NCBI GenBank assembly: GCA_947586855.1
Contig: CANPXV010000002.1
Span: 57,353 to 121,352, forward strand
From: an uncultured Clostridia bacterium
GTDB taxonomy: Bacteria; Bacillota; Clostridia; Christensenellales; CAG-314
Direction of reading: 5' to 3'
DNA length: 64,000 bases
Shown piece by piece: positions 513-26,678 of the stretch (position 1 is its first letter; every line of letters begins with the position of its first letter). The notes beneath the pieces are model-generated. The model did not search any database. It was not told where the DNA came from and worked only from the letters and a program-made list of their open reading frames with translations. Position numbers and translations under genes: made by a program.

Positions 513-607
513 GCGCCGACCGCCGAACTTTTTTTCAGCCCCATCCGCAAAGGAGCGGGCATTTTTTTGCAATATTGCACTTTGTGCAAAATTTTTGCCG
601 ATATATC

Positions 608-636
608 TTGAAATTGCATTGCATTTGTGATAGAAT
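608..636 (+). promoter_or_regulatory. sigmaA-type promoter of the mgtC-family gene
   Basis: TTGAAA-17 nt-TAGAAT with TG extension. Confidence 0.6.
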
Positions 637-667
637 ACAATGACAACAAACAGAGAGGCACAACAAA

Positions 668-1408: not shown

Positions 1409-1428
1409 AAACAAAACGAAAAAAATCA

Positions 1429-1460
1429 CCTCCCGAATTTGGCGTTCGGGAGGGTTTTTT
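1429..1460. terminator. bidirectional intrinsic terminator
   Basis: CCTCCCGAA/TTCGGGAGG stem with A-run before and T-run after, between convergent genes. Confidence 0.8.
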
Positions 1461-1505
1461 ATACTTTGCGGCCTTTGCTCGGGCAAAATAGACATATGGG
1501 GTGCG

Positions 1506-2069
1506 TTATTTGCTCAAAGAAACAGTCAGTTCCTGCCCTTGCAAGCGCAAATGGCAGGTAGATGTGCGGGGGTTTGGACAGCCGAACTTGAACTGCGCCT
1601 CGCCCTGCGTCCACGCCTCGGCAAGCAATTTGGCGGCCTGTTGCGGGGGCAGCTGTTGCCAAACGCAAAGTTTCTCGGGTGAGAGTACCCTCTTGGCCAG
1701 GGCGGCCTTGCCCAAAAATCTCGACGTCTGTTCCACATCTACGCCAACGTGAGTGTGAGACGCCACCGCCGCCACAACGTTGCCGCTGTGACTGAGGGAA
1801 AAATGCACGTCGCCGCCGCACTGCCAGCCCTTGGAAGTGCGCTCGAAGTCGAAACAATCGATTCCCTTGCCGCAAAGGGACTGAAACGCCACGTCCAGCA
1901 GCCGCCACACGGCATAGCGTTGGCGCCGCAGCTGCATATCGGCAGCGGACAAGATGTAGTCGTTGCGCTGTGCGGGATAGACCTCGTCCACCTGCAAGTC
2001 GTCGTCAAAGGCGGCGATATGCACCGTTGTGCCGTCCAAATCAAGTTGCCGTATCTCGGAAAAAATCAT
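1506..2069 (-). CDS. 4'-phosphopantetheinyl transferase family protein
   Basis: FSLSHSG, VGVDVE and W-x-x-x-EA motifs. Confidence 0.75.
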   Translation of the reverse strand: MIFSEIRQLDLDGTTVHIAAFDDDLQVDEVYPAQRNDYILSAADMQLRRQRYAVWRLLDVAFQSLCGKGIDCFDFERTSKGWQCGGDVHFSLSHSGNVVAAVASHTHVGVDVEQTSRFLGKAALAKRVLSPEKLCVWQQLPPQQAAKLLAEAWTQGEAQFKFGCPNPRTSTCHLRLQGQELTVSLSK

Positions 2070-2111
2070 AGAGATATTGTAGCAGAAATTTCGGCGCAGT
2101 GCAAGCGTTGG

Positions 2112-2717
2112 CTACTGTCGGGGTTTGAGGTATTTGTGCGCACGCCCCTCCTTGACGGTGAGATAGCTGCGGCCTATGCAAAAGGCGCCGTCGGGCATAT
2201 CCTTGTCCACTGTGGTGCCGCAAGCGACAAAACAACTTTTGCCCACATGCAACGGCGCCACCAGATTGGCATTGCACCCCACAAAGCAGTCCTCGCCCAC
2301 CGTGGTGCGGTGCTTGGTGCGGCCGTCGAAATTGACAAATATCACGCCACAGCCGATATTGGTGCGTTCGCCCACCTCGGCATCGCCGATGTAGCTGAGG
2401 TGCGCCGCTTTGACGCCGTTGTGCAGCGTGCTGTGCTTTACTTCCACAAAGTTGCCTATGCGGCAGTTGTCGCCGACGACGGTGTTTTCTCGCAGGTGAG
2501 CATTTGGCCCCACAGTGCAATGTGCGCCCACAACGCTGTCGCAAATGCGAGAGGCCCTTACCTGTGTGCAGGCGCCGATGTGCGCATTGACAAGATAGCT
2601 GAAACTGCCCACAACGCAGCCGTCCTCCAAAACGGTGTTGCCCCGCACCACGGCAAAAGGCTCTATCGTGACGTTGCGCCCCACCTTGACGGAATCTTCC
2701 AAAACGTACTCTGACAA
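2112..2717 (-). CDS. GlmU C-terminal-like hexapeptide acetyltransferase (stand-alone left-handed beta-helix)
   Basis: IGNFVEVK, AHLSYIGDA, NIGCG..NFDG..KH and LVAP motifs; TTG start at 2717 with AAGGAG RBS; no uridyltransferase domain. Confidence 0.85.
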   Translation of the reverse strand: MSEYVLEDSVKVGRNVTIEPFAVVRGNTVLEDGCVVGSFSYLVNAHIGACTQVRASRICDSVVGAHCTVGPNAHLRENTVVGDNCRIGNFVEVKHSTLHNGVKAAHLSYIGDAEVGERTNIGCGVIFVNFDGRTKHRTTVGEDCFVGCNANLVAPLHVGKSCFVACGTTVDKDMPDGAFCIGRSYLTVKEGRAHKYLKPRQ

Positions 2718-2804
2718 GACAATTCTCCTTGGAATACACTCACATTGTATGCAAAAGAGGCGCAAAACGTACCAGAAAAAGCTTTTAAGCAGCGTTGTTG
2801 TACA

Positions 2805-5084
2805 CTACGCCAGCCTTGCCACCACCACAGTCATGTCGTCGGCGGGGTGTCCGTTGCAGCGTTTGAGCGCCTTGGACATGATGACCTCGGCAATGCTTTG
2901 CGGCACGTTGAGCGACACCTCGGCAAAGGCGGCCGCTACCAGATTGACGTCCTTGAAGCAATCGGCTACGCCGTCGGACATCAGCACTACCGTGTCGCCG
3001 CTGTTCAGCGCCTTTTTGGTGACGGAAGGCGTCATCTCCTCCAACACGCCGAGGGGCAGGCTGCTGCCGCAGACGATCTCTACCTTGCCGCCCGAGCGCA
3101 CCAAGCCCGAGCACGCCCCCAACTTGATGAAATCCGCCAGCCCGTTGTACAAATCCAGCACCACCATATCCACAGCGCAAAAAATTTCGTTGCCGCCGCC
3201 GATGAGCAGCTTGTTGACGCAGGACAATATCGTGTCGTTGTCGAAGCCCGCACGGTAAAAACTCTCTACCAGGCTGATGGATGTGGCGGACATTTTTTCC
3301 GCCTTGGTGCCGCTGCCCATGCCGTCGCACAGCGCCACGATACACTTGCCGTTATCCGTGTGGGTGACAGTGTGGGTGTCGCCGCTGATCTCGGCGCCCT
3401 CCTTTGGCACGGAGCACACCCCAAACGTGACGGCATATCGGGGCGCAACGTTTAGCAACACATTGACCCAGGCTGCGCTGGCCGTTTGCTCCACACGCTC
3501 CACCGCAACGGGCTGTTTTAGCACGGCGGAAACCGCCTTTTGTATCGTGTCCTTGTCCACGTCCTTGGACGACACTGTCACCACCACCGTTATCATATCC
3601 TTTTGGCGGGCGATGACGGCGCCGCTGCACAGCACGTTGTGGAACACCAACTTGTCCACCAATTCCTGTTCCTTGGCGGTGTCGTAGCCCGTTCGATTTT
3701 TTGTTTCGTCCGCCAGCTGCATAAGCAAATCGGATACGCCGCCCATTTGCTCGCCCAACAGCGCTTTGCCCTGATCGGCCTGATCGCTGCGCTGCTTGTA
3801 GCTGAGGTACACCTCGGCCTGTGCGTTGACCTCGCTGAGCAGCCCGGACACCCTGTCGCACCGCACGGACAGCGCCTGCGGCACGTCCAGAATGGTGCAC
3901 TTGCCCCGCTTGACGGCGCATACGCCCAGCTGCATCAGATTTTGCTCTGTCTGGGCGATATCCTGCCGCCAGCAGCGCACACGCTCGTCACAGTTGCGGC
4001 AGACGCTCTCCGAACACTGCTTGACGATGGCACGCTCGGCCTCCTCCGGCGAGACGGCGCTGCTCGACATGGAAAAGAACGCCTGCTTCATGGACAAAAA
4101 TATATCGGACAGCCGCACCAACCTGCGAGAAACGGCGTCGCCCATCTTTTGCACCACCGTCTGCGACAGATACCGCTCGGCACCGCCCGCACAAAAATCC
4201 CTGATGTAGCCGTACACCCTGCCCGGGACAACGACAAACACCAGCACCGACGCAAATGTGGGTGCAAGGGCCGCCACACCAAAGGTGCCGTGCATACTCA
4301 AAAAGTAGCTCATCAGCACCTCTACCAGCAGCACAGACAGGGCGGCAAGATACCTGTTTATCTTGCAGAGGGTGACGGCGCACAGGGCGGAAAGCACGCA
4401 AAACACGCAGCATTCGCAATTGCCCGAGGCCAAAATGTTGCCCACGCCCACCAATACCGAGGCGCACAGCCCCACCTTGTCGCCGAAACACACCACGCAA
4501 AAAAGCAGGGCAAAGGGCGCAACAAAATAGATAAGCTCCATTTGGCCAAAGCGTATCTGCGAAAGACAGTAGCTTGCCACCGCCACAAACAGCCCTATGC
4601 ACACGGTCTCGTCCAGAGCGGGACGGTAGTTGAGCCCCCGCACAAACACCGCCCGAAAGGTGTAGACGCACACATAGGCAAACGCCTCGCCCAAAGCGGC
4701 AAAAAGCAGCTTGTCAAACAGGTTGAGATAGTCGACAAAGCCGTACGCCACATAAAACACGTTGGCCGCCGTCAGATACAGCAGCAGCGTAAGCTTGCCT
4801 ATCTTGCGCTTGGCAAAAAAGTGTATGGCCACGGCCAGCATTATCACGGCGGTTTTGACGGCGGCTTGCAGCAAAATGCCCCAACCGTACACCGCCGATG
4901 CGCCCAGATACACCACCGAGGCGATTATCGGGTTGGCGGAATACACCGCCCCGACAAACAGGCCGAAGGCGAGATTGCCGTCAAACACCCCGCCCGACGC
5001 CACCGCAAGAGCGGCATATGTTACATATAACAATATGCTTTTTGCCGTAAGTTTGTTTTTCAATGCACCTTTTGCCGCCTTCAT
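2805..5084 (-). CDS. spoIIE: stage II sporulation protein E (PP2C phosphatase)
   Basis: N-terminal multi-TM region; ISGDT, LCDGMGSG and MSDGV..DDMTV PP2C motifs; ATG 5084 with GGGAG RBS. Confidence 0.9.
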   Translation of the reverse strand: MKAAKGALKNKLTAKSILLYVTYAALAVASGGVFDGNLAFGLFVGAVYSANPIIASVVYLGASAVYGWGILLQAAVKTAVIMLAVAIHFFAKRKIGKLTLLLYLTAANVFYVAYGFVDYLNLFDKLLFAALGEAFAYVCVYTFRAVFVRGLNYRPALDETVCIGLFVAVASYCLSQIRFGQMELIYFVAPFALLFCVVCFGDKVGLCASVLVGVGNILASGNCECCVFCVLSALCAVTLCKINRYLAALSVLLVEVLMSYFLSMHGTFGVAALAPTFASVLVFVVVPGRVYGYIRDFCAGGAERYLSQTVVQKMGDAVSRRLVRLSDIFLSMKQAFFSMSSSAVSPEEAERAIVKQCSESVCRNCDERVRCWRQDIAQTEQNLMQLGVCAVKRGKCTILDVPQALSVRCDRVSGLLSEVNAQAEVYLSYKQRSDQADQGKALLGEQMGGVSDLLMQLADETKNRTGYDTAKEQELVDKLVFHNVLCSGAVIARQKDMITVVVTVSSKDVDKDTIQKAVSAVLKQPVAVERVEQTASAAWVNVLLNVAPRYAVTFGVCSVPKEGAEISGDTHTVTHTDNGKCIVALCDGMGSGTKAEKMSATSISLVESFYRAGFDNDTILSCVNKLLIGGGNEIFCAVDMVVLDLYNGLADFIKLGACSGLVRSGGKVEIVCGSSLPLGVLEEMTPSVTKKALNSGDTVVLMSDGVADCFKDVNLVAAAFAEVSLNVPQSIAEVIMSKALKRCNGHPADDMTVVVARLA

Positions 5085-5210
5085 AGACACGCTCCCCGTT
5101 ACCTTCTTGACCCAATGGTACATCTGCGGCGGACAAGTTATTTGTAAAGATATGGCCGATTTTGATAAAATTTGTTGCAGCGCCCACAAAAATCGCCGCA
5201 AAAACGCCCC

Positions 5211-5714
5211 TCAGCACACTTTGCACAGCAGACAGGCCGCCACCGCACCCAAAAGGTTGCAAAACAGCGCAATGGGTATCGCCCAGCCTGTGCGGCGCAC
5301 CTTGGTGCCGGCAAAATAGACGGACGCCACGTAGAACACCGTCTCGCTGCTGCCCATTATCACCGAGGCGCACCGTCCCACATAGCTATCGGGGCCGTAC
5401 TGCTTGTAGACGTCGGCAAGTATCGCCAGACTGCCGCTGCCGCTGAACGGCCTAAGCAGCACCAGCCGCACCACCTCGGATGGTATGCCCAACAGCTGAA
5501 AGGGCGGCGCCAACAGCTTGGTGACGTAGACGTCCAGACCGCTTTCGTGCAGGGCGTTGACCATGATAAATATGGCCGCAAGATAGGGCAGCACCGTGAC
5601 GCTCAGCCCCACCGATTTACGCGCGCCCAACACAAAGCTGTCGTAGACGTTTACCCGCCGAAAAAGCCCCGTCACCAACACTGCGACGATCAACAGCGGC
5701 ACGATGTAGCTCAT
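5211..5714 (-). CDS. spmB: spore maturation protein B
   Basis: LLRPFSGSGS, GSSETVFYV motifs; overlaps the spmA stop. Confidence 0.9.
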   Translation of the reverse strand: MSYIVPLLIVAVLVTGLFRRVNVYDSFVLGARKSVGLSVTVLPYLAAIFIMVNALHESGLDVYVTKLLAPPFQLLGIPSEVVRLVLLRPFSGSGSLAILADVYKQYGPDSYVGRCASVIMGSSETVFYVASVYFAGTKVRRTGWAIPIALFCNLLGAVAACLLCKVC

Positions 5715-6265
5715 TTGGCACGTCCGTATGCGCAAAACACCAACAAAACGCCCACCACCGACGTGAGCGCAGTGGACAGCAGGTTGGGCAGCAAAATATC
5801 CGCAGGGTTGGCCGAGCCTGCCGAGGAACGGAGCCCCATCACCGTGGTGGGCAGCAGCTGTATGCTTGTGGCGTTTACCACAAACAGCATGGCGCCGCTG
5901 CGGCTGAGGGTGTCGGTGTGCTCCGTTTCGCCTATCGCAGCAATGGCAGAGGGCGTGGCGGCGTTGCCCACCCCCAACAAATTGGAGGCAAAGTTGAGGG
6001 AGATGTACCTCTCGGCCGCCTGCGACACCCTGCCATACAGCAGTTTGTTGAGGCCGTGCATACAGTTGGCCAGCCCCTCCACCAGCTTGCATCTATCCGC
6101 CACCTCGAATACGCCCAGCCACAGGCAATAGATCCCGCACAGACCTATGGCGGTGGTGACAGCTTGTGCACAGCTATCCAGACACACCGTAAGCACGCCC
6201 TGCGGCCTGACGACCGTGAGCGCACACAGGGCTATCACCGTGACGCACGTCCAAACAATATTCAT
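5711..6265 (-). CDS. spmA: spore maturation protein A
   Basis: NLLGVGNAATP, FVVNATSIQLLPTT motifs. Confidence 0.9.
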   Translation of the reverse strand: MNIVWTCVTVIALCALTVVRPQGVLTVCLDSCAQAVTTAIGLCGIYCLWLGVFEVADRCKLVEGLANCMHGLNKLLYGRVSQAAERYISLNFASNLLGVGNAATPSAIAAIGETEHTDTLSRSGAMLFVVNATSIQLLPTTVMGLRSSAGSANPADILLPNLLSTALTSVVGVLLVFCAYGRAK

Positions 6266-6292
6266 GGGCAGCTCCTCGACACAATAGTTTAT

Positions 6293-6299
6293 TGTCGAA
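6293..6299. promoter_or_regulatory. putative Spo0A box upstream of spmA
   Basis: exact TGTCGAA; a near match (TGTCGAG on the - strand) at 6276-6282; 7-mers can occur by chance. Confidence 0.35.
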
Positions 6300-6356
6300 A
6301 AATGTCAAGTATAACGCCGTTTGAGGGGCAATTTGCGCCGCCTGTGGGCAATTTTG

Positions 6357-6385
6357 TTTACAAATAGTCAAAAAGAATATATAAT
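6357..6385 (+). promoter_or_regulatory. sigmaA promoter of metG
   Basis: TTTACA-17 nt-TATAAT. Confidence 0.65.
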
Positions 6386-6449
6386 GTAGCTGATATAATG
6401 CCGAGCATGGGCAAAAACCGCCCGTGCAAAATGGACAAGAGGTAAACTT

Positions 6450-8381
6450 ATGAGCAAACCCACCTACTACATCACCACGCCAATCTATTACAGCAGCGGC
6501 AGCTTTCACCTGGGACACTGCTACACCACCGTCATCTGCGACGCCATTGCCCGATTCAAGCGAATGGACGGCTTTGACGTGTTTTATCTGACGGGCACGG
6601 ACGAGCACGGACAAAAAGTGCAGCAAAAGGCGCAAGCGGCAGGCGTGACGCCCAAACAATACGTGGACAAGCTGTACGATCAGATAGTGGCACTGTGGAA
6701 AACCCTCAACATCAGCTACGACAAGTTTATCCGCACCACCGACGACTACCACGAAAAAACGGTGCAAAAAATTTACGAAAAGCTGCTGCAAAGCGGCGAC
6801 ATCTACAAATCCACCTACGAGGGCTGGTATTGCACGCCCTGCGAGAGCTTTTGGACGGAAAGCCAGCTGCACGACGGCAAATGCCCCGACTGCGGCCGAG
6901 AAGTCAAGCTGCAAAAGGAGGAAAGTTACTTCTTCCGCCTGAGCAAATATCAGGACAGGCTGATACAGTTCTACGAGCAAAATCCCGACTTTATCTCCCC
7001 CAAATCCCGCATGAACGAGATGATAAACAACTTTATCAAGCCGGGGCTTAAAGACTTGTGCATATCCCGCACCACCTTCGATTGGGGCATAAAGCTGCCC
7101 TTCGACCCCAAGCACGTGGCGTATGTGTGGGTGGACGCCCTGACCAACTACATCACGGCGCTGGGCTACCTGCAAGAGGATCACGCCCTGTTTGACAAGT
7201 TTTGGCCGGCGGACCTGCACATGGTGGGCAAGGAAATTGTGCGTTTCCACACGATAATCTGGCCGGCACTGCTTATGGCACTGGATCTGCCCCTGCCCAA
7301 AAAAGTGTACGGGCACGGCTGGCTGCTGTTTGGCAACGACAAAATGTCCAAATCCAAGGGCAACGTCGTGGACCCCTTTGTGCTGGCCGATCGCTACGGC
7401 GCAGACGTCATACGCTACTACCTGCTGAGGGAGATCCCCTTTGGCAGCGACGGCAACTACAACAACGAGGCGCTGCTTACCCGCACCAATGCCGATCTGG
7501 TAAACGACCTTGGCAATCTGGTAAGCCGCACCGCCGCCATGGTGACGCAGTACTTCGGCGGAGAGATCCCCCAACCCAACGCCTACACCGAGCCGGATAG
7601 CGAACTGATTGCGCTGTGCGAGGGCGCCCTGCCCAAGGTGCGCCAATATATGGACGAACTATCCGCACCCGACGCTCTCACCGAGACGCTGCGCATTGTG
7701 CAACGGGCCAACAAGTACATAGACGAGACCATGCCCTGGGCGCTCAACAAAAACGGCGACAAGCAACGTCTGGCCACCGTGATGTACGTTTTGTGCGAGT
7801 GTATCCGCTTTGCCGCAACGCTGTTGGAACCCTTTATACCGCAGACATCCGCCAAGATTTTTGAAAAAATCGGCCTGCCTTTGCCCAAAGACTTTGCCGG
7901 GCTGGGGCGCTTTGGCGGTATCGGACAGGGCGTGACGGTGCACAAGGGGGACAATCTGTTTGACCGCATAGATATCGACAAGGAGCTGAAAGAGTTGGAC
8001 AAGCTGGCCGAACAGGCCGAGCCGGCGGAAAAATCCCCCGCACCCGACGAGCAGACGGAGCAAATCTCCATAGAGGACTTTGCCAAAATCAAGCTGCGCA
8101 CGGCCAAGGTGCTTGGCTGCGAGCGTGTGGCCAAAAGCGACAAGCTACTGCTGCTGAGGCTGCAAGTGGGCAGCGAGGTACGCCAAGTGGTAAGCGGCAT
8201 TGCGCAGCACTACACCCCCGAGTATCTGGTGGGCAAAACAGTTGTGCTGGTGGCCAACCTTCGGCCCGCAAAAATCAGAGGGGTAGAGTCCAACGGCATG
8301 ATATTGTGCGCCGCCGACGACAAAAGCGTAGTGTTTGTCTCGCCGGAAAAGCCCATGGACAGCGGCAAGGAAGTGCGCTGA
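6450..8381 (+). CDS. metG: methionyl-tRNA synthetase
   Basis: HLGH (HIGH-like), KMSKS, Zn-knuckle CxxC..CPDC, C-terminal tRNA-binding domain. Confidence 0.97.
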   Translation: MSKPTYYITTPIYYSSGSFHLGHCYTTVICDAIARFKRMDGFDVFYLTGTDEHGQKVQQKAQAAGVTPKQYVDKLYDQIVALWKTLNISYDKFIRTTDDYHEKTVQKIYEKLLQSGDIYKSTYEGWYCTPCESFWTESQLHDGKCPDCGREVKLQKEESYFFRLSKYQDRLIQFYEQNPDFISPKSRMNEMINNFIKPGLKDLCISRTTFDWGIKLPFDPKHVAYVWVDALTNYITALGYLQEDHALFDKFWPADLHMVGKEIVRFHTIIWPALLMALDLPLPKKVYGHGWLLFGNDKMSKSKGNVVDPFVLADRYGADVIRYYLLREIPFGSDGNYNNEALLTRTNADLVNDLGNLVSRTAAMVTQYFGGEIPQPNAYTEPDSELIALCEGALPKVRQYMDELSAPDALTETLRIVQRANKYIDETMPWALNKNGDKQRLATVMYVLCECIRFAATLLEPFIPQTSAKIFEKIGLPLPKDFAGLGRFGGIGQGVTVHKGDNLFDRIDIDKELKELDKLAEQAEPAEKSPAPDEQTEQISIEDFAKIKLRTAKVLGCERVAKSDKLLLLRLQVGSEVRQVVSGIAQHYTPEYLVGKTVVLVANLRPAKIRGVESNGMILCAADDKSVVFVSPEKPMDSGKEVR

Positions 8382-17955: not shown

Positions 17956-18044
17956 GGAGAGATGGTCGAGCGGTTTAAGGCACACGCTTGGAAAGCGTGC
18001 GAGGTTAACAGCCTCCGCAGGTTCAAATCCTGTTCTCTCCGCCA
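17956..18044 (+). tRNA. tRNA-Ser(GGA)
   Basis: cloverleaf with anticodon arm CACGC-TTGGAAA-GCGTG, long variable arm, GTTCAAATC T-loop, encoded CCA. Confidence 0.95.
17987..18044 (+). repeat. left att copy (58-bp direct repeat, inside tRNA-Ser)
   Basis: identical to 26621-26678. Confidence 0.95.
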
Positions 18045-18133
18045 CAAAATGGGCAAAAATTGGCTAAAAATGAGCAAAAATAGCCCAAAAACAAGGGAAA
18101 CACGCAAAACGTGTCTCCCTTTATTTTTGCCTC

Positions 18134-18155
18134 TGACACTAAATTTGACACTAAA
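18134..18155 (+). repeat. integrase arm-type sites (TGACACTAAA x2)
   Basis: 12-bp-spaced direct repeats; same motif occurs three times at 26510-26543. Confidence 0.65.
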
Positions 18156-19182
18156 TTTTTTTGTGGAATACCTCGGGATAATGATCCAGATAGCCGGACA
18201 TGTCCACCTTGGAACGATACACCGTCATCGTATCCGAATGTTTGACCTGCTCCAAATCGAACGCCTCGACAATCTCGTCCATTATATCCCGAAAGCTGCC
18301 GTCGGACAACTCGCCCTTGACGTTCTGTAAGAAACGAACAACAGGCTCATTTACATTTTGCGTATTGAAAAGATAGCAATCTCTACAATCCAGATTGAGA
18401 GTGTGAAAAAACCGTTTGCAGCGATACGGTGCCGGGCACTGCTTAGTGAGATACTTGCCCAAATAATTCACCACCTGCTGCTTAGAAGAGCCGGGAACTA
18501 TGCAGCATACAGTACTAAACCCGGCTTTCCAATCAATACAGTTGAATATCTGATTGCCGAACTCAGAATAAACAAACTCACCGGTGTGTGGGTTGATTGC
18601 CGGCGTCAAACGCAGCAAACAATTGCCAAGAAGAGCGTGCATGTGGTAACCGCCCTTTTCAAACTCCTCGTATGTAGCAATAGCCTTTACATCGGGGTTA
18701 GACTTACGCAGCATAACCATAAACTCCTTGTATGTGGCATAAAGCAAATCCTTGTCCGAGCGACAACGTGGGTCGGAAAAAGTCCATGTACAAAAGTACT
18801 GCCAATTATTCTCGCCCAAAGCATAGTTGTAAAAACGACTTTTGCTCTCCCTTGCTGCACGCTTGCGTGACGCAATCAAATCTGCAATCTTGACCGAGGG
18901 GTCGGCCGGGATAAGTGTGCCGCCCACCGACTTCCATCGCTGAGCGCTTATTGCTTCGGCGAATTCAAAATTTGTGACATAGTCCGAAACCATATCCGCA
19001 TCAAGCGCTACATGCTTGGGAACCCGGAAGGGCTTGGCAAACTTCAAAACTTCCACACCACTTGTTTCTGTTGTGGATATGACGCTGTCAAAATACTCGT
19101 AATCGATACGAACAATCTGTCCGTCCTTTTCGTAAACATTAGATACTTTTTCTCCCGTGTCCTTGTCAAAAAGATAGTTCAT
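18151..19182 (-). CDS. HUH rolling-circle replication initiator
   Basis: motif 1 YFCTWTF, motif 2 GYHMHALL, motif 3 YLGKY. Confidence 0.85.
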   Translation of the reverse strand: MNYLFDKDTGEKVSNVYEKDGQIVRIDYEYFDSVISTTETSGVEVLKFAKPFRVPKHVALDADMVSDYVTNFEFAEAISAQRWKSVGGTLIPADPSVKIADLIASRKRAARESKSRFYNYALGENNWQYFCTWTFSDPRCRSDKDLLYATYKEFMVMLRKSNPDVKAIATYEEFEKGGYHMHALLGNCLLRLTPAINPHTGEFVYSEFGNQIFNCIDWKAGFSTVCCIVPGSSKQQVVNYLGKYLTKQCPAPYRCKRFFHTLNLDCRDCYLFNTQNVNEPVVRFLQNVKGELSDGSFRDIMDEIVEAFDLEQVKHSDTMTVYRSKVDMSGYLDHYPEVFHKKI

Positions 19183-19248
19183 TGTCACCTCGAAATTTTA
19201 TAAAAAACGCCATGGGCAATGAAAAAATTGCCCTTTTTGTCTACTGTT

Positions 19249-19275
19249 GTGCCACCAGTATCAAGTAGGTGGCAC
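19249..19275 (-). promoter_or_regulatory. double-strand origin hairpin (nick site)
   Basis: GTGCCACC-TACTTGATACT-GGTGGCAC on the - strand; the loop contains CTTG|ATA of the phiX174/pC194 type; lies just upstream of rep. Confidence 0.75.
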
Positions 19276-19540
19276 ATGGCCCACTGCGTGGGCCGATACG
19301 GACTCACCGCCACAGCCGTGCGCTCGGCTACGCTCGTCGCTGCGCTGCTGCTGCGGTGAGGTGTGTGTTACATGTTGTGGCAGGTAGGGGGAGGCAGATC
19401 GCCTCCCCTGCGGGGGAGCCTGACCTCTGACGGCTGAGCTCGTCAAGGTCGCCGGCGAATTTATCCCTCCCGCCCAAGGGCGTGAGCATAAAGCTCGCCG
19501 CTCTCTTGACGGTCACCCGCAGATGACGTTGCCTGCCTCT

Positions 19541-19984
19541 CTACGGGGAGTTTGGCGGCGCCGGTGGTTGGGCGTTTGCCTCCGTTGACGGCACAGGCAG
19601 CGTTGTGGGCGCCGAAACGGAGCTTTGGCCGGGGATTGTGTCCAGAACGTCCTTGTCCGCCTTGGCGTCCCTCGTGCCCTTGGATAGGGCCGAAAGCTCC
19701 AACTCAAATTGCGCACGGTACTGTTGCAGCAATGCCTTGGCCTTGCGGTTCCACCAGAACAAACGACGCCGTGGGACGTAGTTGGCCACCTTGAAGGCAA
19801 GCTCGAAGTTGCTTTCCGCACAGGCAAGAGCCTGCTGTTGCAAAAATATATCCGTCGCTGCGTCAAACTGATTGAGCAGCAGCTTGCGTGCAGCAAGATA
19901 GAACTCCTCACTAAACTGCGCCTTGTTGGTTTCCAGCTCGGCAAACAGCTCATAATATTCAGATAGAAAGTCATGCAGCTCCAT
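19541..19984 (-). CDS. hypothetical alpha-helical protein (prophage)
   Basis: 147 aa, RBS GAGG, overlaps the Zot stop. Confidence 0.6.
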   Translation of the reverse strand: MELHDFLSEYYELFAELETNKAQFSEEFYLAARKLLLNQFDAATDIFLQQQALACAESNFELAFKVANYVPRRRLFWWNRKAKALLQQYRAQFELELSALSKGTRDAKADKDVLDTIPGQSSVSAPTTLPVPSTEANAQPPAPPNSP

Positions 19985-20879
19985 AAACTGTCCTCATAAT
20001 GTACTCTTGCAGCGTTTCGTCGCTGCCGGACTTTGCCCACTCCTTGCGCAGATCCTCGGCGTCCCCGGGATAGAAACCCCTGGGCGCAGACTGACGGTAG
20101 ATCTGTTTGCTTATCTCCAATTGAAGCTGCGCATCAGACTGCCGACCCTGCGCATGAGTGCCAAAGGAAAAATCCTTGGCTGTGCCCGGGAGAAATGCGT
20201 CAAAGTAACACGCCGATGTGTACGCCTCAAACACATTGCCCTCGTGGATATATTCCTCCCGGGAGTAGTTGGTCAAGCTGTCGTTATCCACGTACCGCTC
20301 CGCTGCTGCCAGGCTGTCCCAGCTTCTGAGAGAGAACCTCGACGCCAGAATGTTGCCCATGCGGTCATACTCATGTTCCAGCTTGTACACTTCCACTATG
20401 CGGCCGGCCAACTGACGGATATTGAGATCGCACAGCAGCAGCCGCTGCAAGTCCAGATAGATATCCAGACCGTAATGCCGGTGCTCCTCGTAGAACCTAC
20501 TCACCCAATCCGGCAGTGCCTTCTTGTCTTTGTTGCGGCTATTGTAATAACGTTGCACTTCGGTTAAGCCAATCACTGCGCCCGGCAACACATTTGTAAC
20601 CGGCACATAATCGTTTTCCAAACCGAGGTGGAAACCATCAACGTAAAAACTACTGCGCCACTTGTTGTAACCTACATGGGCGCTCACCGGGAAGTTGGTA
20701 TAAACCGGCGGAGTGGTCGGGAGAGTATAACCCAGGCGCTCATCCAGAGCGAGCACCCGGTCCCGACAGCTCCAAAGCAGCTCATAGGCCTCACGGCTGT
20801 TACCTAAATAACGCAGCATCTGACTGACCAGGTACGCCGTCTTGCCCGCCCCGGGCTTGCCGAATATTATAGTGATCAT
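19971..20879 (-). CDS. Zot/pI-like morphogenesis ATPase
   Basis: N-terminal GKPGAGKT; TEVQRYYNSR (DEAQ-like); HRHYGLDIYLDLQ..D.NIRQL typical of the Zot family; no TM segment seen. Confidence 0.85.
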   Translation of the reverse strand: MITIIFGKPGAGKTAYLVSQMLRYLGNSREAYELLWSCRDRVLALDERLGYTLPTTPPVYTNFPVSAHVGYNKWRSSFYVDGFHLGLENDYVPVTNVLPGAVIGLTEVQRYYNSRNKDKKALPDWVSRFYEEHRHYGLDIYLDLQRLLLCDLNIRQLAGRIVEVYKLEHEYDRMGNILASRFSLRSWDSLAAAERYVDNDSLTNYSREEYIHEGNVFEAYTSACYFDAFLPGTAKDFSFGTHAQGRQSDAQLQLEISKQIYRQSAPRGFYPGDAEDLRKEWAKSGSDETLQEYIMRTVYGAA

Positions 20880-22282
20880 CCCTTGCGCCCCTTTGCCTTA
20901 TTGACTATCCAGACAACAAGCCGTACCGGTGCAGATATTATGTACCAAAGGATCTTCACAAGCCATTTGAGACCTATCCAGATACCTTTGAACGCAACAC
21001 GCAGCACCGGGAAGAAAATGGACAAAATTCCAAACAGCAGCAATGCGCCGAGAAGAACGAGGATCCACCAATTAGATTGAAAAAACTCTTTGACGCCGTT
21101 CCAGAACTCATTCCAGCTTTTAACAAACTCCTTCCACCAAGAAAAAGGATCATCTATTTCAGGATTATTATCTTGTTCGTCACGACCCGTTTGCTTGTTG
21201 CTTACGACACCCAGGTTGTATGTCTGGCCACGTTCGGCAAACATAAGGCGCAAGATAGTCACCTCGCTAACTTTTTCATAGTCAATCATGCGGCCCATCG
21301 TCTGGTTGTGTACCTGGTAACGGCCTTCGTAAAAGCGCAGGACCCATTGGTAGTCCTCCAAATCCTCTTTGACGTCATCCTGCAAATCCTCGTTGCTCAC
21401 AAAGCTCGACACGCTCTCAATCCTATTCCAGATATGCTTTTGGCCGCCAAAGCCCCAGGTGTCGTTTGCAACGACATCGGAGTAACTTAGCGAAACAAAT
21501 TTAGTGGCCGGGTCCGAACTCGCCTTGTCTACCACTGTGCCGAACAATGTATCCTCTCTCCACCAATACTGCTGGACAAATTGGACATCGGCCTCGTACA
21601 AATCGTCTATGCGGTGATTGGTAGAAAAAGCGACATAAAAGCTATCGCAACTATCCTGCATGAAGGAAAAGCCGTTAAGATACCGAACATAACCGACACG
21701 CATTTTTTTAATGGGTATAACCTCAGTGTACTGCTCACCATATTGCACCTTGCCATCAACGGTGACGGCCATGTAGCAGCGTGCAACCTCGTAGGAGACC
21801 TCGTCCGTTTGGTTGCCGTTTGGCAGCGTAGACGTCAGCTCAGAACCGAACGGCAGACGGTAGATAGCGGATATATCATAATAGCGCAAAAGCGCAGAGC
21901 GAAGGGTAAAACCTTCCACCATGTACTTGCCCAGAGCACCGTCCAGAGCAATCAGCTGCAACTTGTAGTTGTACCAATGCCGCTCAGACTGTTCCGGTGC
22001 GTCCTGGCAAATGTTAATGCTCGATGCCGTCACGGCGTCTCCGCAGGGTTGGTAAACGTAAACAAACAGCTCGTCGCCTGCGCCCTCCGCGATCTGGATG
22101 ACGTCTATCGAGTGATCACCGCTTACAAGCGGGTATTGTCCGACATCGAAGTCCGGATCCTGTTGCAGATCCTCCAAGGGGCCGGTGTAGTCTGTGGACG
22201 CCGCAAAGGCAGCGGATGTCAATCCGCCGCCCAAACAGGTCAATAACAGCACCGTCAACATTACTATTGCAAATTTACGCAT
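20876..22282 (-). CDS. secreted, C-terminally anchored protein (pIII/spike-like)
   Basis: signal peptide MRKFAIVML..AFAA; C-terminal TM plus amphipathic basic tail; immediately upstream of Zot. Confidence 0.65.
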   Translation of the reverse strand: MRKFAIVMLTVLLLTCLGGGLTSAAFAASTDYTGPLEDLQQDPDFDVGQYPLVSGDHSIDVIQIAEGAGDELFVYVYQPCGDAVTASSINICQDAPEQSERHWYNYKLQLIALDGALGKYMVEGFTLRSALLRYYDISAIYRLPFGSELTSTLPNGNQTDEVSYEVARCYMAVTVDGKVQYGEQYTEVIPIKKMRVGYVRYLNGFSFMQDSCDSFYVAFSTNHRIDDLYEADVQFVQQYWWREDTLFGTVVDKASSDPATKFVSLSYSDVVANDTWGFGGQKHIWNRIESVSSFVSNEDLQDDVKEDLEDYQWVLRFYEGRYQVHNQTMGRMIDYEKVSEVTILRLMFAERGQTYNLGVVSNKQTGRDEQDNNPEIDDPFSWWKEFVKSWNEFWNGVKEFFQSNWWILVLLGALLLFGILSIFFPVLRVAFKGIWIGLKWLVKILWYIISAPVRLVVWIVNKAKGRKG

Positions 22283-22290
22283 AGCCCACC

Positions 22291-22857
22291 TCAAAAGACA
22301 ACATGATCGGGGACGACCTCGATGCCGGCAATGCCCCGACAGTAAAACATAAGTTCAAAGCAGTGCTTACCGTCGTGGCCCGTCACCACAAGCTTGTACA
22401 TGACTGCCTGCTGCGGGGCAAGAACTATTTGCACATCTCGCCCCGGATAGACAGCTTGCAGCATGTCCTCTAAAAACATGTCTTTGGCGTGCAGTTCGAA
22501 GCTGCTTTCGCCTTGGACAATACCAAATGCAGCGGAGACGTCTTTGCCCAGCAGCGTATCCAGATAACTGTGCGGCACACCGTCCACGTTATACACAAAG
22601 TCCTCCTCCGAGACCGGCACCACATACACGGTGTAGCCATGTTTCAGACCGAACTGCCTGACATCGAGGCGCACATCCCCCAGGCGGTACACAGCGTCCC
22701 GGTGCAGACGCTTCGAACCGGAAGAAAGGTACACGAACTCAAACGAAGTTGTGAACCAATCTGAATTGTAACCCCAGACGACCACAAAGACGGCACAAAG
22801 GATGACAAGCAAGACAATCGTGCAAATGGTAATTATTTTTTCTTCATGCTTGTCCAT
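22291..22857 (-). CDS. membrane protein with N-terminal TM (prophage)
   Basis: IITICTIVLLVILCAVFVVVW then SDWF; RBS GAGGTG. Confidence 0.65.
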   Translation of the reverse strand: MDKHEEKIITICTIVLLVILCAVFVVVWGYNSDWFTTSFEFVYLSSGSKRLHRDAVYRLGDVRLDVRQFGLKHGYTVYVVPVSEEDFVYNVDGVPHSYLDTLLGKDVSAAFGIVQGESSFELHAKDMFLEDMLQAVYPGRDVQIVLAPQQAVMYKLVVTGHDGKHCFELMFYCRGIAGIEVVPDHVVF

Positions 22858-22865
22858 AGTGCACC

Positions 22866-24032
22866 TCAGAACACCAAGTCAGTCAGACCACCGACAGATT
22901 GGACTGAAACAGTAAATATTGACTGGTCAAAACCGAGATTACTATATGTTTTAGACCAACCATCGCAAGAAATAGTTATGTTAAATTTATAATCTTTAGA
23001 AAAACAACTCCTACCCCACGTAGAGTCAACAGTCTTGCCGGAGTTAAAAGTGCACAAATGGTTAAGAATATCCAACGTAGGCTTAAAGTCTTTTAAATCA
23101 CTATAAGTTGCAGTATCCTTGAAGGATCTCACAATGTGACCACAAGAGCCTCGCTGACAAGCCTCTTGCCCCATATTGCATCTAATGGTAGCCATATAAC
23201 CATTAGCCATTGTCGGAAATTGAATAGAAAGAGAAGGGACTGCGCTATTGTCAATAGTCCCAATGGTATATGTTATTGATCCAGACGACGTTGTCGGAGG
23301 ACCAGATACATACATATTGCCAAAAGGCATACCATTTCCCTCAACAGTTCCGTCGGCTTTTAATATAAGCTTACCAGGTTGTCCGGCAATGCTAATCGTA
23401 GTTTCCACACCGGAAACTCTTTTTTTGTAGTCCACGTTGCAGGTTGCAAATTTGCTGTTGTCGTCACGAGAAGTGACCTTTATCTCAATCTGCTCGCCAA
23501 AAGCTTGCAAACATTGAACATTGGCCGTCAACGCACCGTCCTCGGTCGGTGTGACGGTAACATAGTCAGTTACAGTTTTGCCGCTTGCAAAAGCAGACGA
23601 CGGGTTCTTCCAGGCAATCGACCAATCGACCGCCTTGTTAGTGGCGTCGGAAGGGTCGATTGTTGCAGTCAACTGTTGCGCACTTTCGGCAATGGACATT
23701 ATGCCGTAGTCGCCGAACTGTTCACGAGGGATGGCAGCGCTCATGAGGCGGATGCCGTTATTGGCAGCTTGTGCAGACTGCATGCCGCCATTGTCATCCA
23801 CGACAGGCTCTACCTTTTCAACTTCACCGCCCGCTTTGGCCTCACCGCAACGGACGCAGAGGCCGTCCTCGCCGTAGTTATGACCAAAAAGACAATATTT
23901 GTTCCAGTTAGAAAACCAATCTGTCAATACGCCGGTTACTATTACCGCAATTATGAGCAGAATGGCCAGTGTTACTGCGATCCACTTGCGGTGGTCGCTG
24001 GCCGCATGGGCCCTGAATGAATAGTTACTCAT
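22866..24032 (-). CDS. membrane-anchored Ig-like (Big_2-type) protein (prophage)
   Basis: N-terminal TM then DWF; QLTATIDPSDATNKAVDWS Ig-like motif; RBS GGAGGT. Confidence 0.65.
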   Translation of the reverse strand: MSNYSFRAHAASDHRKWIAVTLAILLIIAVIVTGVLTDWFSNWNKYCLFGHNYGEDGLCVRCGEAKAGGEVEKVEPVVDDNGGMQSAQAANNGIRLMSAAIPREQFGDYGIMSIAESAQQLTATIDPSDATNKAVDWSIAWKNPSSAFASGKTVTDYVTVTPTEDGALTANVQCLQAFGEQIEIKVTSRDDNSKFATCNVDYKKRVSGVETTISIAGQPGKLILKADGTVEGNGMPFGNMYVSGPPTTSSGSITYTIGTIDNSAVPSLSIQFPTMANGYMATIRCNMGQEACQRGSCGHIVRSFKDTATYSDLKDFKPTLDILNHLCTFNSGKTVDSTWGRSCFSKDYKFNITISCDGWSKTYSNLGFDQSIFTVSVQSVGGLTDLVF

Positions 24033-24328
24033 TGTTTACCTCCATGTGATTTGTAAGCTTTTGTTTCGTCGATCACGTGCGATCGATATCCGGCACGATA
24101 TGCACGCTGCACCTCGGTAAGCTGCAACGGTTTGCCGTTTTTGTCCAACTTGACCTCGCCTTCGTTAGTCAGGCGGACGTTATGTTCCAACTCGTAAGTA
24201 GCCTTTGCAAACTTTCCGTGCGGATTGAGCAATGTCAGCTCTTTACCAGTTTCGTTGTTACGAACCCGGGTGCCGATCTGCTTGCCCCCTTTGCCTTTGA
24301 CAGGTTTCACCTTGTTCCATTTTGCCAT
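24029..24328 (-). CDS. small basic hypothetical protein (prophage)
   Basis: 99 aa, Lys/Arg-rich, RBS AGGAGGTG. Confidence 0.65.
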   Translation of the reverse strand: MAKWNKVKPVKGKGGKQIGTRVRNNETGKELTLLNPHGKFAKATYELEHNVRLTNEGEVKLDKNGKPLQLTEVQRAYRAGYRSHVIDETKAYKSHGGKQ

Positions 24329-24461
24329 TGAATAATCACCTCCTGATAGATATTTTTTACACCGCCCAACAGCACGGCGATGAATGGAAAAGGACTGTTT
24401 GGCACAATCCCTCAGAAGCCCCGCAGAAACCTATCGAGCTGCGTCTGCGGTCGCAACAATA

Positions 24462-24731
24462 TTACTTGACAATGTTTTTGACCACCACACTGTCGCCGAC
24501 TACCTCGACTTCAAGCTGCACCTGCTGCTCGTATCCCAATGTGCGGATATCCTCGGTAGTCCAAAAGGTGAGGATCTGAGGATCCAGATACATCCCTCGC
24601 TGCTTATCCGCAGTAGCAGATAAAAGCTTTTCGCCCTGGACGAACGTGTAGCAATACTTGTTAGTGTTTTTGGAGGCGGTTGCCGTTCTGCCCAAAAAGT
24701 TTGCGTTTACCAATGCTTTGATGCCTGCCAT
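24462..24731 (-). CDS. putative ssDNA-binding protein (pV-like)
   Basis: 89 aa, beta-rich pattern, first gene of the operon, RBS AAGGAG; function inferred from size and position only. Confidence 0.45.
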   Translation of the reverse strand: MAGIKALVNANFLGRTATASKNTNKYCYTFVQGEKLLSATADKQRGMYLDPQILTFWTTEDIRTLGYEQQVQLEVEVVGDSVVVKNIVK

Positions 24732-24898
24732 AGTGTTACATTTCTCCTTTGCCACCAACATTGTCGGGTGGACTTGATATATATTCCGGGTTACGCTCCC
24801 GGTGAACGTCTTAACGGGAACCCCCGATGGGGCACTCCATCGAGAGCAGATCTTCGAGGTATAAAGCTCAGTGCCGAGCCGAGGAGAAAACCCCTTGA

Positions 24899-24978
24899 TT
24901 TAGCAAAATGCTAAATCTACAAATATTATATTCAGCAAAATATTAAATGTCAAGACAAATATTCAAAGTTATGCTAAA
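24899..24978. promoter_or_regulatory. three 17-bp operator-like sites of the prophage switch
   Basis: perfect palindrome TTTAGCAAAATGCTAAA (24899), variants at 24931 and 24962. Confidence 0.7.
24925..24953 (-). promoter_or_regulatory. consensus promoter of the prophage replication/structural operon
   Basis: TTGACA-17 nt-TATAAT; the spacer is operator 2. Confidence 0.8.
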
Positions 24979-25001
24979 AATTTTACAAGAGGATAAAGAA
25001 A

Positions 25002-25319
25002 ATGATTAAAATTAAAGAATTACGGATAGAAAAAGGCTTGTATCAAAAAGATATAGCCAAATTGGTTAACAAAACAATTGCATGTATAAGCGATTGGGAA
25101 AAAGGAAATACCGAGCCAAGCATTAGCGAAATAGTTAAACTAGCAGATTTTTTTGAAGTTTCGACAGATTACTTGTTAAACCGCACAGACGACACCGGGC
25201 TGGTGGAAGTACACAGCGATCTGACACCGGACCAACAGGAGCTACTTGACTTGTACAACCGAATGAACTACCGGGACAAAAACCAATTACTCGGCTTTGC
25301 AAAGGGGCTTGTTTATTAG
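25002..25319 (+). CDS. XRE/Cro-CI family HTH repressor
   Basis: IKELRIEKGLYQKDIA..WEKGNTEPS..LADFFEVSTDYLL. Confidence 0.92.
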   Translation: MIKIKELRIEKGLYQKDIAKLVNKTIACISDWEKGNTEPSISEIVKLADFFEVSTDYLLNRTDDTGLVEVHSDLTPDQQELLDLYNRMNYRDKNQLLGFAKGLVY

Positions 25320-25355
25320 TACCCTTGTTCTACCGGGAAAAGGAGCCGGCAGAAC

Positions 25356-26543
25356 ATGAGAACAGAAAACTATCTAATAGCCCTCGAACGAATTGACGGC
25401 ATGCTGCTGCAAGTTATTGGTGCCATGAAGGCCGAAATTGTTAAGCAGCATCGGAACTCCGACGATCAGAACGGGAACCAAATGCAGATCGAAGGAGCGA
25501 AATTGACAAAAGTAGACATCAAAGGAATATCTGTTGACCACAAGATACGGAAAGACGGAAGATTTCAGGCCAGATACACATTGGAAGGAGTGCAGCACTC
25601 TGTATACGGAAAGACACCGGACGAGGCGCTGCGCAAAGCCATTGACGGCTACAAAGGAAAACGAAAAACAAAAACGCAAACGTCCACCTTTGCAGAGTGG
25701 TACAATCGCTGGATGACGCTATACAAAATAAAGAAGCTGCGACCCAACACCCTGAAAAGCTACAACTACACCACCAACAAGTATCTGAACCCAAGGCTCG
25801 GCAAGAAGAAACTAAACCAGCTTGACACTAACACGCTGCAAGAAGTACTGAACGATATAAAACGACCACGACAACAGCAGATTGCCGGGAATATTTTAGT
25901 CGCATGTATAACAAAAGCTTATACCAGCGGAGTTATAAAAACAAACCCTGCACTGGGTATTGAAAAGACGCAGCACCACTACAACGAGCGTCGAGCACTG
26001 ACAAGCGAGGAAATGCAACGGCTGCTTGACACTATACATGGGGACAAGTTCGAGCTCCTGATATACGTCTATTTATATGCCGGACTGCGCCGATCGGAAG
26101 CGTTGGCGCTGCGATGGAGCGACATAGACATGCAAAAACAGACGATAACGGTGCGACACCAGGTAAACGAACAGCGGGAGCTGACGGAAACCAAAAGTGA
26201 CAAAGGCAACAGAACATTGCCGATACTGCCCCCACTGCTCGACAAGCTGAAACAACAAGAGCAACACGGAGATTTTTTGTTTACCTGGCGTCCCTCCTTG
26301 GTAACCCACGAATTGCGAGTTCTGTTTGACAAGCTCAACATGCCGGACATAAATGTACACTGCTTACGACACACTTTCGCAACAATGCTGAAAGACATGG
26401 GCATACCGGAAGATTTACGAACAAAATGGATGGGACACAGCCGGCTGGAACACAAAGATCGCTATGAACACATCCGTGAGGAGTATGAGGCCAAACAAAC
26501 AGAACTGCTGCGACACAAATTTGACACTAAAAGTGACACATAA
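25356..26543 (+). CDS. tyrosine integrase
   Basis: arm-binding RKDGRFQARY..YGKT; catalytic GLRRSE, HCLRH, MGH, RY. Confidence 0.93.
   Translation: MRTENYLIALERIDGMLLQVIGAMKAEIVKQHRNSDDQNGNQMQIEGAKLTKVDIKGISVDHKIRKDGRFQARYTLEGVQHSVYGKTPDEALRKAIDGYKGKRKTKTQTSTFAEWYNRWMTLYKIKKLRPNTLKSYNYTTNKYLNPRLGKKKLNQLDTNTLQEVLNDIKRPRQQQIAGNILVACITKAYTSGVIKTNPALGIEKTQHHYNERRALTSEEMQRLLDTIHGDKFELLIYVYLYAGLRRSEALALRWSDIDMQKQTITVRHQVNEQRELTETKSDKGNRTLPILPPLLDKLKQQEQHGDFLFTWRPSLVTHELRVLFDKLNMPDINVHCLRHTFATMLKDMGIPEDLRTKWMGHSRLEHKDRYEHIREEYEAKQTELLRHKFDTKSDT
26510..26543 (+). repeat. integrase arm-type sites (TGACAC motif x3)
   Basis: 12-bp periodicity, overlapping the int stop codon. Confidence 0.65.
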
Positions 26544-26620
26544 TATAACCAAAATACAAGAAAAAGGGACTGTTTTGCGATAAAATAGCCCCTTTTTGTT
26601 AAAAAAACAAGCAAAATATC

Positions 26621-26678
26621 CTTGGAAAGCGTGCGAGGTTAACAGCCTCCGCAGGTTCAAATCCTGTTCTCTCCGCCA
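26621..26678 (+). repeat. right att copy (3' 58 nt of tRNA-Ser)
   Basis: identical to 17987-18044. Confidence 0.95.

Follow-up and report, generated by a model that had tools for sequence, protein, structure and literature searches.

A prophage of 8.6 kb (positions 17987-26678), inserted at the 3' end of a serine tRNA gene, was found in a 64,000-nucleotide stretch of DNA from an uncultured Clostridia bacterium (NCBI GenBank assembly GCA_947586855.1, contig CANPXV010000002.1, positions 57,353 to 121,352; the whole stretch is referred to below as the window, and coordinates follow its numbering). The safest statement about this element is that three membrane proteins encoded by it, p472, p188 and p388, constitute the particle and adsorption module of a temperate phage that is intact, combines a Zot-type ATPase with a rolling-circle replication protein (Rep) and belongs to a large, undescribed lineage without the classical inovirus coat set. 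What is new here is: (i) the occupancy of the 'coat slot', i.e. the gene position directly upstream of p472, (ii) the divergence of the p472 and p388 ectodomains, and (iii) a fold match of p472 to ORF1 of phage L2, for which the sequence support is weak.

The assignment to a phage lineage is supported by the Zot (PF05707) and Rep (PF23343) domains, the integrase, the XRE repressor, exact att repeats, and the presence of a promoter and a terminator (Table 1). Circular relatives are also found in virus collections, namely bajarodino virus 12 (9.8 kb) and a 13.5-kb entry of IMG/VR (L092), the latter being regarded as circular because of its 55-bp terminal repeat. We describe the element as a Tubulavirales-like phage of the Zot/pI type that is intact and temperate and has rolling-circle replication.

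The element has no small coat gene

A criterion for the detection of inoviruses is a short (30-90 aa) structural protein with a single transmembrane (TM) segment, the major coat protein (Roux et al. 2019, PMC6813254). The element was scanned for short open reading frames (ORFs) of 20-130 aa in six frames and from every ATG, GTG and TTG start, with hydropathy expressed as the mean Kyte-Doolittle (KD) value over a 19-residue window. The results showed that 47 of the 446 ORFs contained a hydrophobic 19-mer with a KD of at least 1.6, and that these ORFs either were embedded in larger genes, out of frame, antisense or, in the case of p472, in frame, or overlapped the tRNA-Ser gene or lay past attR. 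The inter-gene gaps (19189-19540, 24329-24461 and 24762-25001) held no hydrophobic ORF of 20-130 aa, and no 30-90 aa single-TM ORF was present in them on either strand. None of the same-strand, out-of-frame hydrophobic ORFs was positionally kept in six relatives. Small hydrophobic ORFs resembling pVIII, pVII, pIX or pVI were absent from the element, and none of its proteins matched a coat family in Pfam or PHROGs. The claim of the initial annotation that a small single-TM coat ORF is lacking was thus borne out by both the 446-ORF scan and the overlap check in the relatives.

The same absence was observed in seven related loci (L001-L003 and L011-L014) and in the circular genome of bajarodino virus 12. 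The particle gene set is different from the classical inovirus set.

Since the hydropathy of the Zot-like ATPase peaks at a KD of only 0.93, the protein has no TM helix, as had been stated earlier, and a TM-less Zot was also found in the family members examined. This feature is not new, because a stand-alone, TM-less Zot has been reported from gut Firmicutes inoviruses (PMC8530359). The distinctive trait of the element is the absent coat gene.

Three membrane proteins stand in place of the coat

The genes for p472, p188 and p388 had been placed correctly, all on the minus strand, by the initial annotation. Hydropathy analysis of p472 showed a signal-like N-terminal segment (KD 1.81) ending in AFA/AS, a strong TM segment at residues 410-428 (KD 2.74) and a weaker hydrophobic stretch at residues 446-464 (KD 1.82), in agreement with the signal peptide and C-terminal anchor previously ascribed to this 468-aa protein. 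The AlphaFold2 (AF2) model (pLDDT 87, pTM 0.73) contains an all-beta ectodomain (residues 60-365) and three C-terminal helices (residues 381-467). From the N- to the C-terminus, p472 is made up of a signal peptide, the ectodomain, a Trp-rich membrane-proximal helix, the TM segment and a basic cytoplasmic tail. The tails that follow the first C-terminal TM segment are basic throughout the family, with a median length of 30 aa and a net charge of +6 at the median and +24 at the maximum. We regard p472 as a candidate adsorption protein and membrane partner of Zot.

Both p188 and p388 have one TM segment, at residues 8-26 (KD 3.32) and 18-36 (KD 3.06), respectively, and the AF2 model of p188 (pLDDT 86) has a helix at residues 3-31. 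The N-terminal anchorage of these proteins and the motif that they share after the TM segment, GYNSDWF in p188 and GVLTDWF in p388, were found as they had been described before. In p388, a Cys-x12-Cys-x2-Cys motif is located just outside the membrane at residues about 45-66 (window 23880-23950; CLFGHNYGEDGLCVRCGEAK). This motif was found again in two relatives, L004 and L030 (CLFKHHYGEDNKCTRCGADK), and may form a small extracellular knuckle stabilised by metal or disulfides.

Sequence searches against PDB were empty for the proteins queried from the element, p472 among them, and a Foldseek comparison of p472 with PDB gave generic beta-sandwich matches only, with a TM-score of 0.16 or less. In Pfam and PHROGs, nothing beyond a sub-threshold match to DUF2207_C was found for p472, and p388 alone among p188, p388, p147 and the two small proteins of the operon gave a match, a weak one to Big_2.

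The distal ectodomains of p472 and p388 diverge between close relatives

The proteins of the element were compared with those of its nearest relative (L001). Rep, Zot, p147, both small proteins and the XRE repressor were 99-100% identical, the integrase 97% and p188 95%. The identity fell to 32-60% at residues about 160-400 of p472, and to 20-50% in the C-terminal half (~190 aa) of p388, the N-terminal half of which was 92-100% identical. Both variable stretches are flanked by sequences that are 92-100% identical. Judged from these alignments, elements with 95-100% identity elsewhere carry distal ectodomains in p472 and p388 that are swapped or hypervariable. Such cassette-like divergence of exposed domains is a receptor-binding signature.

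The lineage is large and largely confined to Clostridia

p472 was used as the signature protein of the lineage. A word-indexed search returned 1,791 p472 relatives among the candidates scored, none of which carried an informative name. When 1.84 billion cluster representatives were searched exhaustively with a profile, 1,865 p472 clusters (50% identity) were obtained at an E-value of 0.001 or lower, 1,084 of them at 1e-30 or lower. In species-representative genomes (one genome per species), p472 was present in 254 loci, and the hosts among the matches listed were almost all Clostridia (Christensenellales, Oscillospiraceae and Lachnospiraceae). By contrast, IMG/VR contained two p472 loci; GenBank phage records likewise contained two, one of them being bajarodino virus 12. 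A scan of IMG/VR with a single Zot sequence gave no relative, and we found neither a published description of the lineage nor a paper behind the bajarodino viruses.

Two loci come from bins labelled Parasutterella and Corallococcus (L058 and L028), whereas all others are from Clostridia; these labels are most likely binning errors and not true hosts. Another locus (L056; NZ_CALPCH010000036.1, 3,925 bp) is a short separate contig of a cultured isolate, Pumilibacter intestinalis CLA-AA-M10, and carries genes for a 422-aa N-anchored protein, a p472 homologue and Zot. The contig may belong to a copy that is episomal or repeated, and the isolate offers a laboratory handle on the family.

The neighbours of p472 were counted with iterated profiles in 92 loci. 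The p388 family was present in 53 of these, the p188 family and Zot in 44 each, the integrase in 39, Rep in 35 and the basic small protein in 34. Zot was found within 6.5 kb downstream of p472 in half of the loci with at least that much downstream sequence. Most of the other loci examined had, where Zot would stand, a 47-48 aa TM ORF and a multi-TM protein of ~703 aa, as exemplified by two loci in which a 47-48 aa single-TM ORF and the ~703-aa protein lie between p472 and Rep (L017:9344-11594 and L071:9432-11667). The ~703-aa protein has 3-4 N-terminal TM segments and matches the Zot profile weakly (P 0.002-0.004); it had no Pfam match, and no Walker A motif was detected by pattern. Outside the one clade in which this ~700-aa membrane protein takes its place, the ATPase gene follows p472, either immediately or some genes later.

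The order N-anchored protein, p472, Zot was observed in the window and in loci L001-L003, L008, L010-L014, L042 and L068. Nearly every locus has an N-anchored protein in the slot directly upstream of p472. The occupant is mostly p188-like (about 180-220 aa) and sometimes p388-like. In sister clades, the slot is filled by a single-pass protein of 63-115 aa (69 aa in L015, 87 in L021, 71 in L037, 76 in L038 and 97 in L044) that consists of a basic N-terminus, a TM segment, an aromatic motif and an acidic tail. The aromatic motif (NVGF..W.SWG or DEWKSWG) resembles that of p188 and p388. By size and number of TM segments these small proteins would pass as inovirus 'coat-like', but they match no known coat family, and their charge layout is the mirror image of that of pVIII.

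A modified extruded rod is tentatively favoured

Our preferred reading, to which we tentatively give somewhat less than an even chance, is that the particle is an extruded rod of a modified type, in which p188 fills the coat slot while p472 serves in adsorption, like pIII, and as the partner of Zot. Rep would produce single-stranded DNA (ssDNA) circles, and the basic cytoplasmic tail of p472 would bring the soluble Zot to the membrane, replacing the missing TM domain of pI. The DNA would then be extruded into a rod or filament without lysis. The sheath would be formed by the N-terminal TM helices of the coat-slot protein, here p188, which would be an enlarged subunit with its Ig-like domain facing outward; the sister clades would use the 63-115 aa version, with the basic N-terminus inside and the acidic tail outside. 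In its pIII role, p472 would contribute a signal peptide, a receptor-binding ectodomain and a C-terminal anchor, with p388 as a further protein for receptor binding. Such a particle is predicted to exceed the Ff filament in thickness and decoration, and to come nearer to the 10-16 nm rods of plectroviruses.

We lean towards a rod because: (i) all viruses with a pI/Zot ATPase that are known to us make one, (ii) the order of the N-anchored protein, the p472-type protein and the ATPase parallels that of pVIII, pIII and pI, (iii) the first slot still holds a small single-TM protein in the sister clades, and (iv) the Clostridia hosts are presumably walled and no lysis gene is recognisable in the element.

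Several points weigh against the rod. Neither p188 nor the small sister-clade proteins show similarity to a coat family, and we know of no precedent for a sheath of 21-kDa subunits with the N-terminus inside. All candidate structural proteins are integral membrane proteins with large ectodomains, which suits an enveloped particle at least as well; the same may be said of the basic soluble protein, which is predicted from its Shine-Dalgarno (SD) sequence, the strongest of the operon, to be highly expressed. Furthermore, p472 is matched best in fold by a protein of L2, an enveloped phage, and the element is known here from its genes alone.

The initial annotation had proposed a membrane vesicle or pleomorphic particle, or else a device for the transfer of ssDNA from cell to cell, in place of a classical filament, and had set the finding of an overlooked short hydrophobic coat ORF against this idea. 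The non-classical nature of the particle holds to the extent that the gene set is not that of a classical inovirus and that the best fold match of p472 is L2 ORF1, but the link to L2 is weak. As to a vesicle rather than a filament, the 63-115 aa single-TM ORF that sister clades have in the slot of p188 comes near to just such a coat ORF and favours a modified filament over a vesicle.

An enveloped, L2-like particle is a weaker possibility

The possibility exists that the particle is enveloped and pleomorphic like that of L2 (a budding phage of Acholeplasma, Plasmaviridae), with p472 as the main envelope protein, homologous to L2 ORF1, and p188 and p388 as further envelope proteins. The basic 99-aa protein would in that case condense the genome, and the Zot-type ATPase would drive loading or membrane budding. 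We consider such a particle conceivable, if rather unlikely. In essence this is the proposal of the initial annotation, except that L2 takes the place of the pleolipoviruses as the relative. It agrees with the membrane nature of all structural candidates and with the SD strength of the basic protein. When the p472 model was compared with BFVD by Foldseek, the top match was L2 ORF1 (P42536; E 5e-5, probability 0.97) with a full-length alignment, but the TM-score was 0.18/0.15 and the target is itself a predicted model. Full-length homologues of ORF1 share the architecture of p472 (signal peptide, large ectodomain, acidic linker, Trp, TM segment, basic loop and second hydrophobic segment) and have a strand, '..VVFETDG..', that is comparable to 'ILRLKFETxG'. 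The two proteins were aligned collinearly by hhalign over the last ~150, membrane-proximal residues with a P of 0.003-0.006, which, however, improves no more than 3-6-fold on the lowest value among 42 unrelated controls (0.017), and HMMER found nothing between p472 and L2 ORF1. In addition, ORF1 has an internal Gly/Ala-rich hydrophobic stretch resembling a fusion peptide that p472 lacks, which we count in favour of the rod.

The annotated L2 ORF1 (L13696, 246-2021; L093) has 591 aa, and three metagenomic homologues that are 47-97% identical have 623-632 aa. These homologues carry an N-terminal signal peptide absent from the annotated protein, suggesting that the latter is probably truncated at the N-terminus.

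L2 resembles the element in being temperate, in having an integrase, and in its gene order, in which Ig-like envelope proteins (those annotated are ORF13 and ORF14) are followed by ORF1, with a signal peptide, an ectodomain and a C-terminal TM pair, then by a small protein and lastly by a P-loop ATPase. This ATPase, ORF3, located two genes downstream of ORF1, was aligned with the Zot profile over 189 columns (P 5e-5, hhalign probability 66%). We did not accept it as a specific Zot relative because unrelated P-loop ATPases, which reach a P of 3-5e-4 with the same profile, score within a factor of ten. A second, independent link to L2 through p188 was likewise rejected, as the fold search with this protein returned generic Ig-like glycoproteins only and no L2 match.

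The biology of the two also differs. L2 has double-stranded DNA (dsDNA), annotated DnaA-box origins, no HUH Rep and a wall-less host, whereas the element has a HUH Rep and a hairpin-rich candidate origin region in place of L2-type dsDNA replication from DnaA boxes, and is hosted by Clostridia, which presumably have a wall. Among its genes, Pfam and PHROGs revealed neither a peptidoglycan hydrolase nor a lysis function, and we know of no enveloped phage of a walled Gram-positive host.

We treat the relation of p472 to L2 ORF1 as a lead that is about as apt to prove right as wrong. That the lineage, with its thousands of elements in gut Clostridia, makes enveloped pleomorphic particles with rolling-circle ssDNA, that p472 is a true homologue of L2 ORF1 and that the Zot-type ATPase is shared, seems to us unlikely.

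A hidden coat or the absence of a virion is improbable

A classical thin filament could be built if proteolysis freed a small coat peptide, the source being either the last ~90 residues of p472 or the TM helix at the start of p188. The three predicted helices at the C-terminus of p472 (381-467) have a pVIII-like charge layout (acidic amphipathic helix, TM segment, basic end), the gene order is inovirus-like, and GenBank places bajarodino virus 12 in the Inoviridae. We found, however, no cleavage motif or protease and no similarity to any coat family in Pfam or PHROGs; the ectodomains are conserved, and they diversify by cassettes in the way of exposed parts that have a function, and true Clostridial inoviruses retain a separate G8P-like gene. 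Thus, it is very unlikely that a coat is hidden in this way.

It is equally improbable that no free virion is made and that the proteins form a cell-surface device for contact-dependent ssDNA transfer, or that the element is a helper-dependent satellite or remnant: a recognisable capsid or coat is indeed missing, all candidate proteins are membrane-anchored and the lineage is nearly absent from IMG/VR (2 loci vs 254 in genomes), but no relaxase, coupling protein or type IV secretion system genes were found with Pfam and PHROGs, complete circular relatives are on record from virus surveys of faeces and in IMG/VR, every gene is intact and hundreds of species have conserved this gene set, and the receptor-binding-like cassettes fit adsorption from outside the cell.

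Comparison with other known phages

The gut Firmicutes inoviruses with a stand-alone Zot are like the element in host class, small genome, the presence of Rep and Zot, a tyrosine integrase at a tRNA gene and a non-lytic gene set (PMC8530359, PMC10061712). Among them, the 'Clade-1' phages Ino-01 to Ino-06 have a Zot without the C-terminal domain of Proteobacterial phages (PMC8530359), and the Enterocloster inoviruses form filaments in electron microscopy, have a G8P-like coat precursor of 95 aa and a Zot with an N-terminal TM segment (PMC10061712). The phages of both studies were selected by, or carry, a major coat protein of the Inoviridae type, whereas the element has p472, p188 and p388 instead; unlike the Enterocloster inoviruses, it also lacks both a G8P-like precursor and a TM segment in Zot.

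The sole annotated public virus record with the same module is bajarodino virus 12 (PQ006185). This circular genome of 9,828 bp comes from rodent faeces and is assigned to the Inoviridae on the basis of Zot. In common with the element, it encodes an Ig-like protein of 352 aa with an N-terminal anchor, a 541-aa homologue of p472 (30% identity), Zot (39%), and an integrase and repressor, and like the element it has no small TM ORF. Unlike the element, it has no recognisable HUH Rep, and it is known from sequence alone.

Plectroviridae are Tubulavirales of Mollicutes (Spiroplasma and Acholeplasma) that form rods of 10-16 nm, wider than inovirus filaments, and are annotated with a major coat protein, CoaB (PMC8295915). 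A coding sequence of SpV1-R8A2B (7492..232) matched the Zot profile of the lineage with an E-value of 3e-10. Structural homology to plectroviruses was rejected, since the p472, p188 and p388 profiles found nothing in MV-L1 or SpV1-R8A2B and the ATPase alone matched. Plectroviruses have CoaA/CoaB structural proteins and wall-less hosts, unlike the element, the relatives of which are in Clostridia genomes.

The initial annotation had also drawn a comparison with pleolipoviruses. On paper, Pleolipoviridae such as HRPV-1 resemble the element in having a Rep, a C-terminally anchored spike that carries a signal peptide, further membrane proteins and an ATPase, but the hosts of this family are archaeal. 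The comparison did not survive analysis by hhalign: VP4 gave a P of 0.5-0.6 with the p472 profile, and VP8 gave a P of 0.017 with Zot, which is worse than that of unrelated P-loop ATPases.

Borders and operon layout of the element

The features of the element are listed in Table 1. The att sites form an exact 58-bp direct repeat (17987-18044 vs 26621-26678). The genes for the XRE repressor and the tyrosine integrase are located on the plus strand at the attR side. Between the promoter (24953 to 24925) and the terminator (18121-18093) lies a single leftward operon, transcribed in the order 89-aa protein, basic 99-aa protein, p388, p188, p472, Zot, p147 and Rep; the start of the Zot gene overlaps the p472 stop. 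The genes of this operon are thus run as one unit under repressor control.

Table 1. Features of the prophage and its borders, in window coordinates
Feature	Position	Strand	Remarks
tRNA-Ser(GGA)	17956..18044	+	ARAGORN; its 3' 58 bp (17987-18044) are attL
Terminator-like hairpin at operon end	18093..18121	-	13-pair stem, then T run; 30 nt past Rep stop
HUH rolling-circle Rep, 343 aa from ATG at 19182	18151..19182	-	PF23343 REP_ORF2-G2P, E 2.7e-7; phrog_3419; GAGGTGA SD before ATG
Non-coding hairpin-rich region, ~350 bp	19189..19540	-	several GC hairpins; no credible ORF
p147, soluble	19541..19984	-	start overlaps end of Zot gene; profile matches in 8 of 92 loci, each time after Zot
Zot/pI-type assembly ATPase, 302 aa	19971..20879	-	PF05707, E 1.3e-8, above gathering score; phrog_197, E 2.9e-12
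p472, 468 aa from SD-backed ATG at 22282	20876..22282	-	ORF spans 20876-22294
p188, N-terminal TM helix and Ig-like beta-sandwich	22291..22857	-	fills 'coat slot' directly upstream of p472
p388, N-terminal TM, Cys motif, Ig-like domains, hypervariable C-terminal half	22866..24032	-	weak Big_2 match, E 0.003
Basic soluble protein, 99 aa	24029..24328	-	21 K+R vs 10 D+E; strongest SD of operon; stop overlaps p388 start
89-aa protein at position of inovirus gene V product	24462..24731	-	SD before ATG at 24731
Consensus sigma-70 promoter of operon	24925..24953	-	TTGACA-17-TATAAT, 12/12 matches; divergent from repressor gene
XRE-type repressor	25002..25319	+	HTH_3, E 1.1e-13
Tyrosine integrase	25356..26543	+	PF00589, E 5.8e-19; phrog_1, E 3e-63
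attR, copy of tRNA-Ser 3' end	26621..26678	+	58/58 identical to 17987-18044

The hairpin-rich region, which adjoins the Rep gene, is a candidate origin or packaging signal. In the gene maps examined, the genes for the membrane proteins are preceded by that for the basic 99-aa protein, which is a candidate DNA-associated protein. From its gene position, the 89-aa protein may bind ssDNA; it had no match in Pfam, PHROGs or PDB.

Right after attR, a 139-nt block (26671-26809) is followed by a second copy at 28076-28214 with 87% identity. Both copies start with the final bases of the tRNA, and the DNA between them is AT-rich (GC 0.35) and contains an ORF at 27429-28049. Positions 26671-28214 of the window look like a second small island stacked at the same tRNA-Ser gene. 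Past the islands and outside the element, two large surface-type proteins are encoded on the minus strand at 28538-32899, one of 359 aa with an N-terminal TM segment and one of 1,092 aa with a C-terminal TM segment.

Implications for phages of gut Clostridia

Virus finders detect phages of the Zot type by searching for Zot together with a small single-TM coat protein, and the present lineage is without the coat half of this pair. Since 254 loci are present in genomes as against two in IMG/VR, and p472 is unannotated, the lineage seems to represent temperate, probably non-lytic mobile elements that are common in gut Clostridia (Christensenellales, Oscillospiraceae and Lachnospiraceae) and have gone unseen as a class. 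The findings raise the question of how a particle is built by a pI/Zot motor without pVIII, and also that of the relatives of the orphan enveloped phage L2. If the enveloped reading were true, it would tie the Plasmaviridae to the assembly machinery of filamentous phages, and the lineage would represent the first enveloped phage type from walled Gram-positive bacteria.

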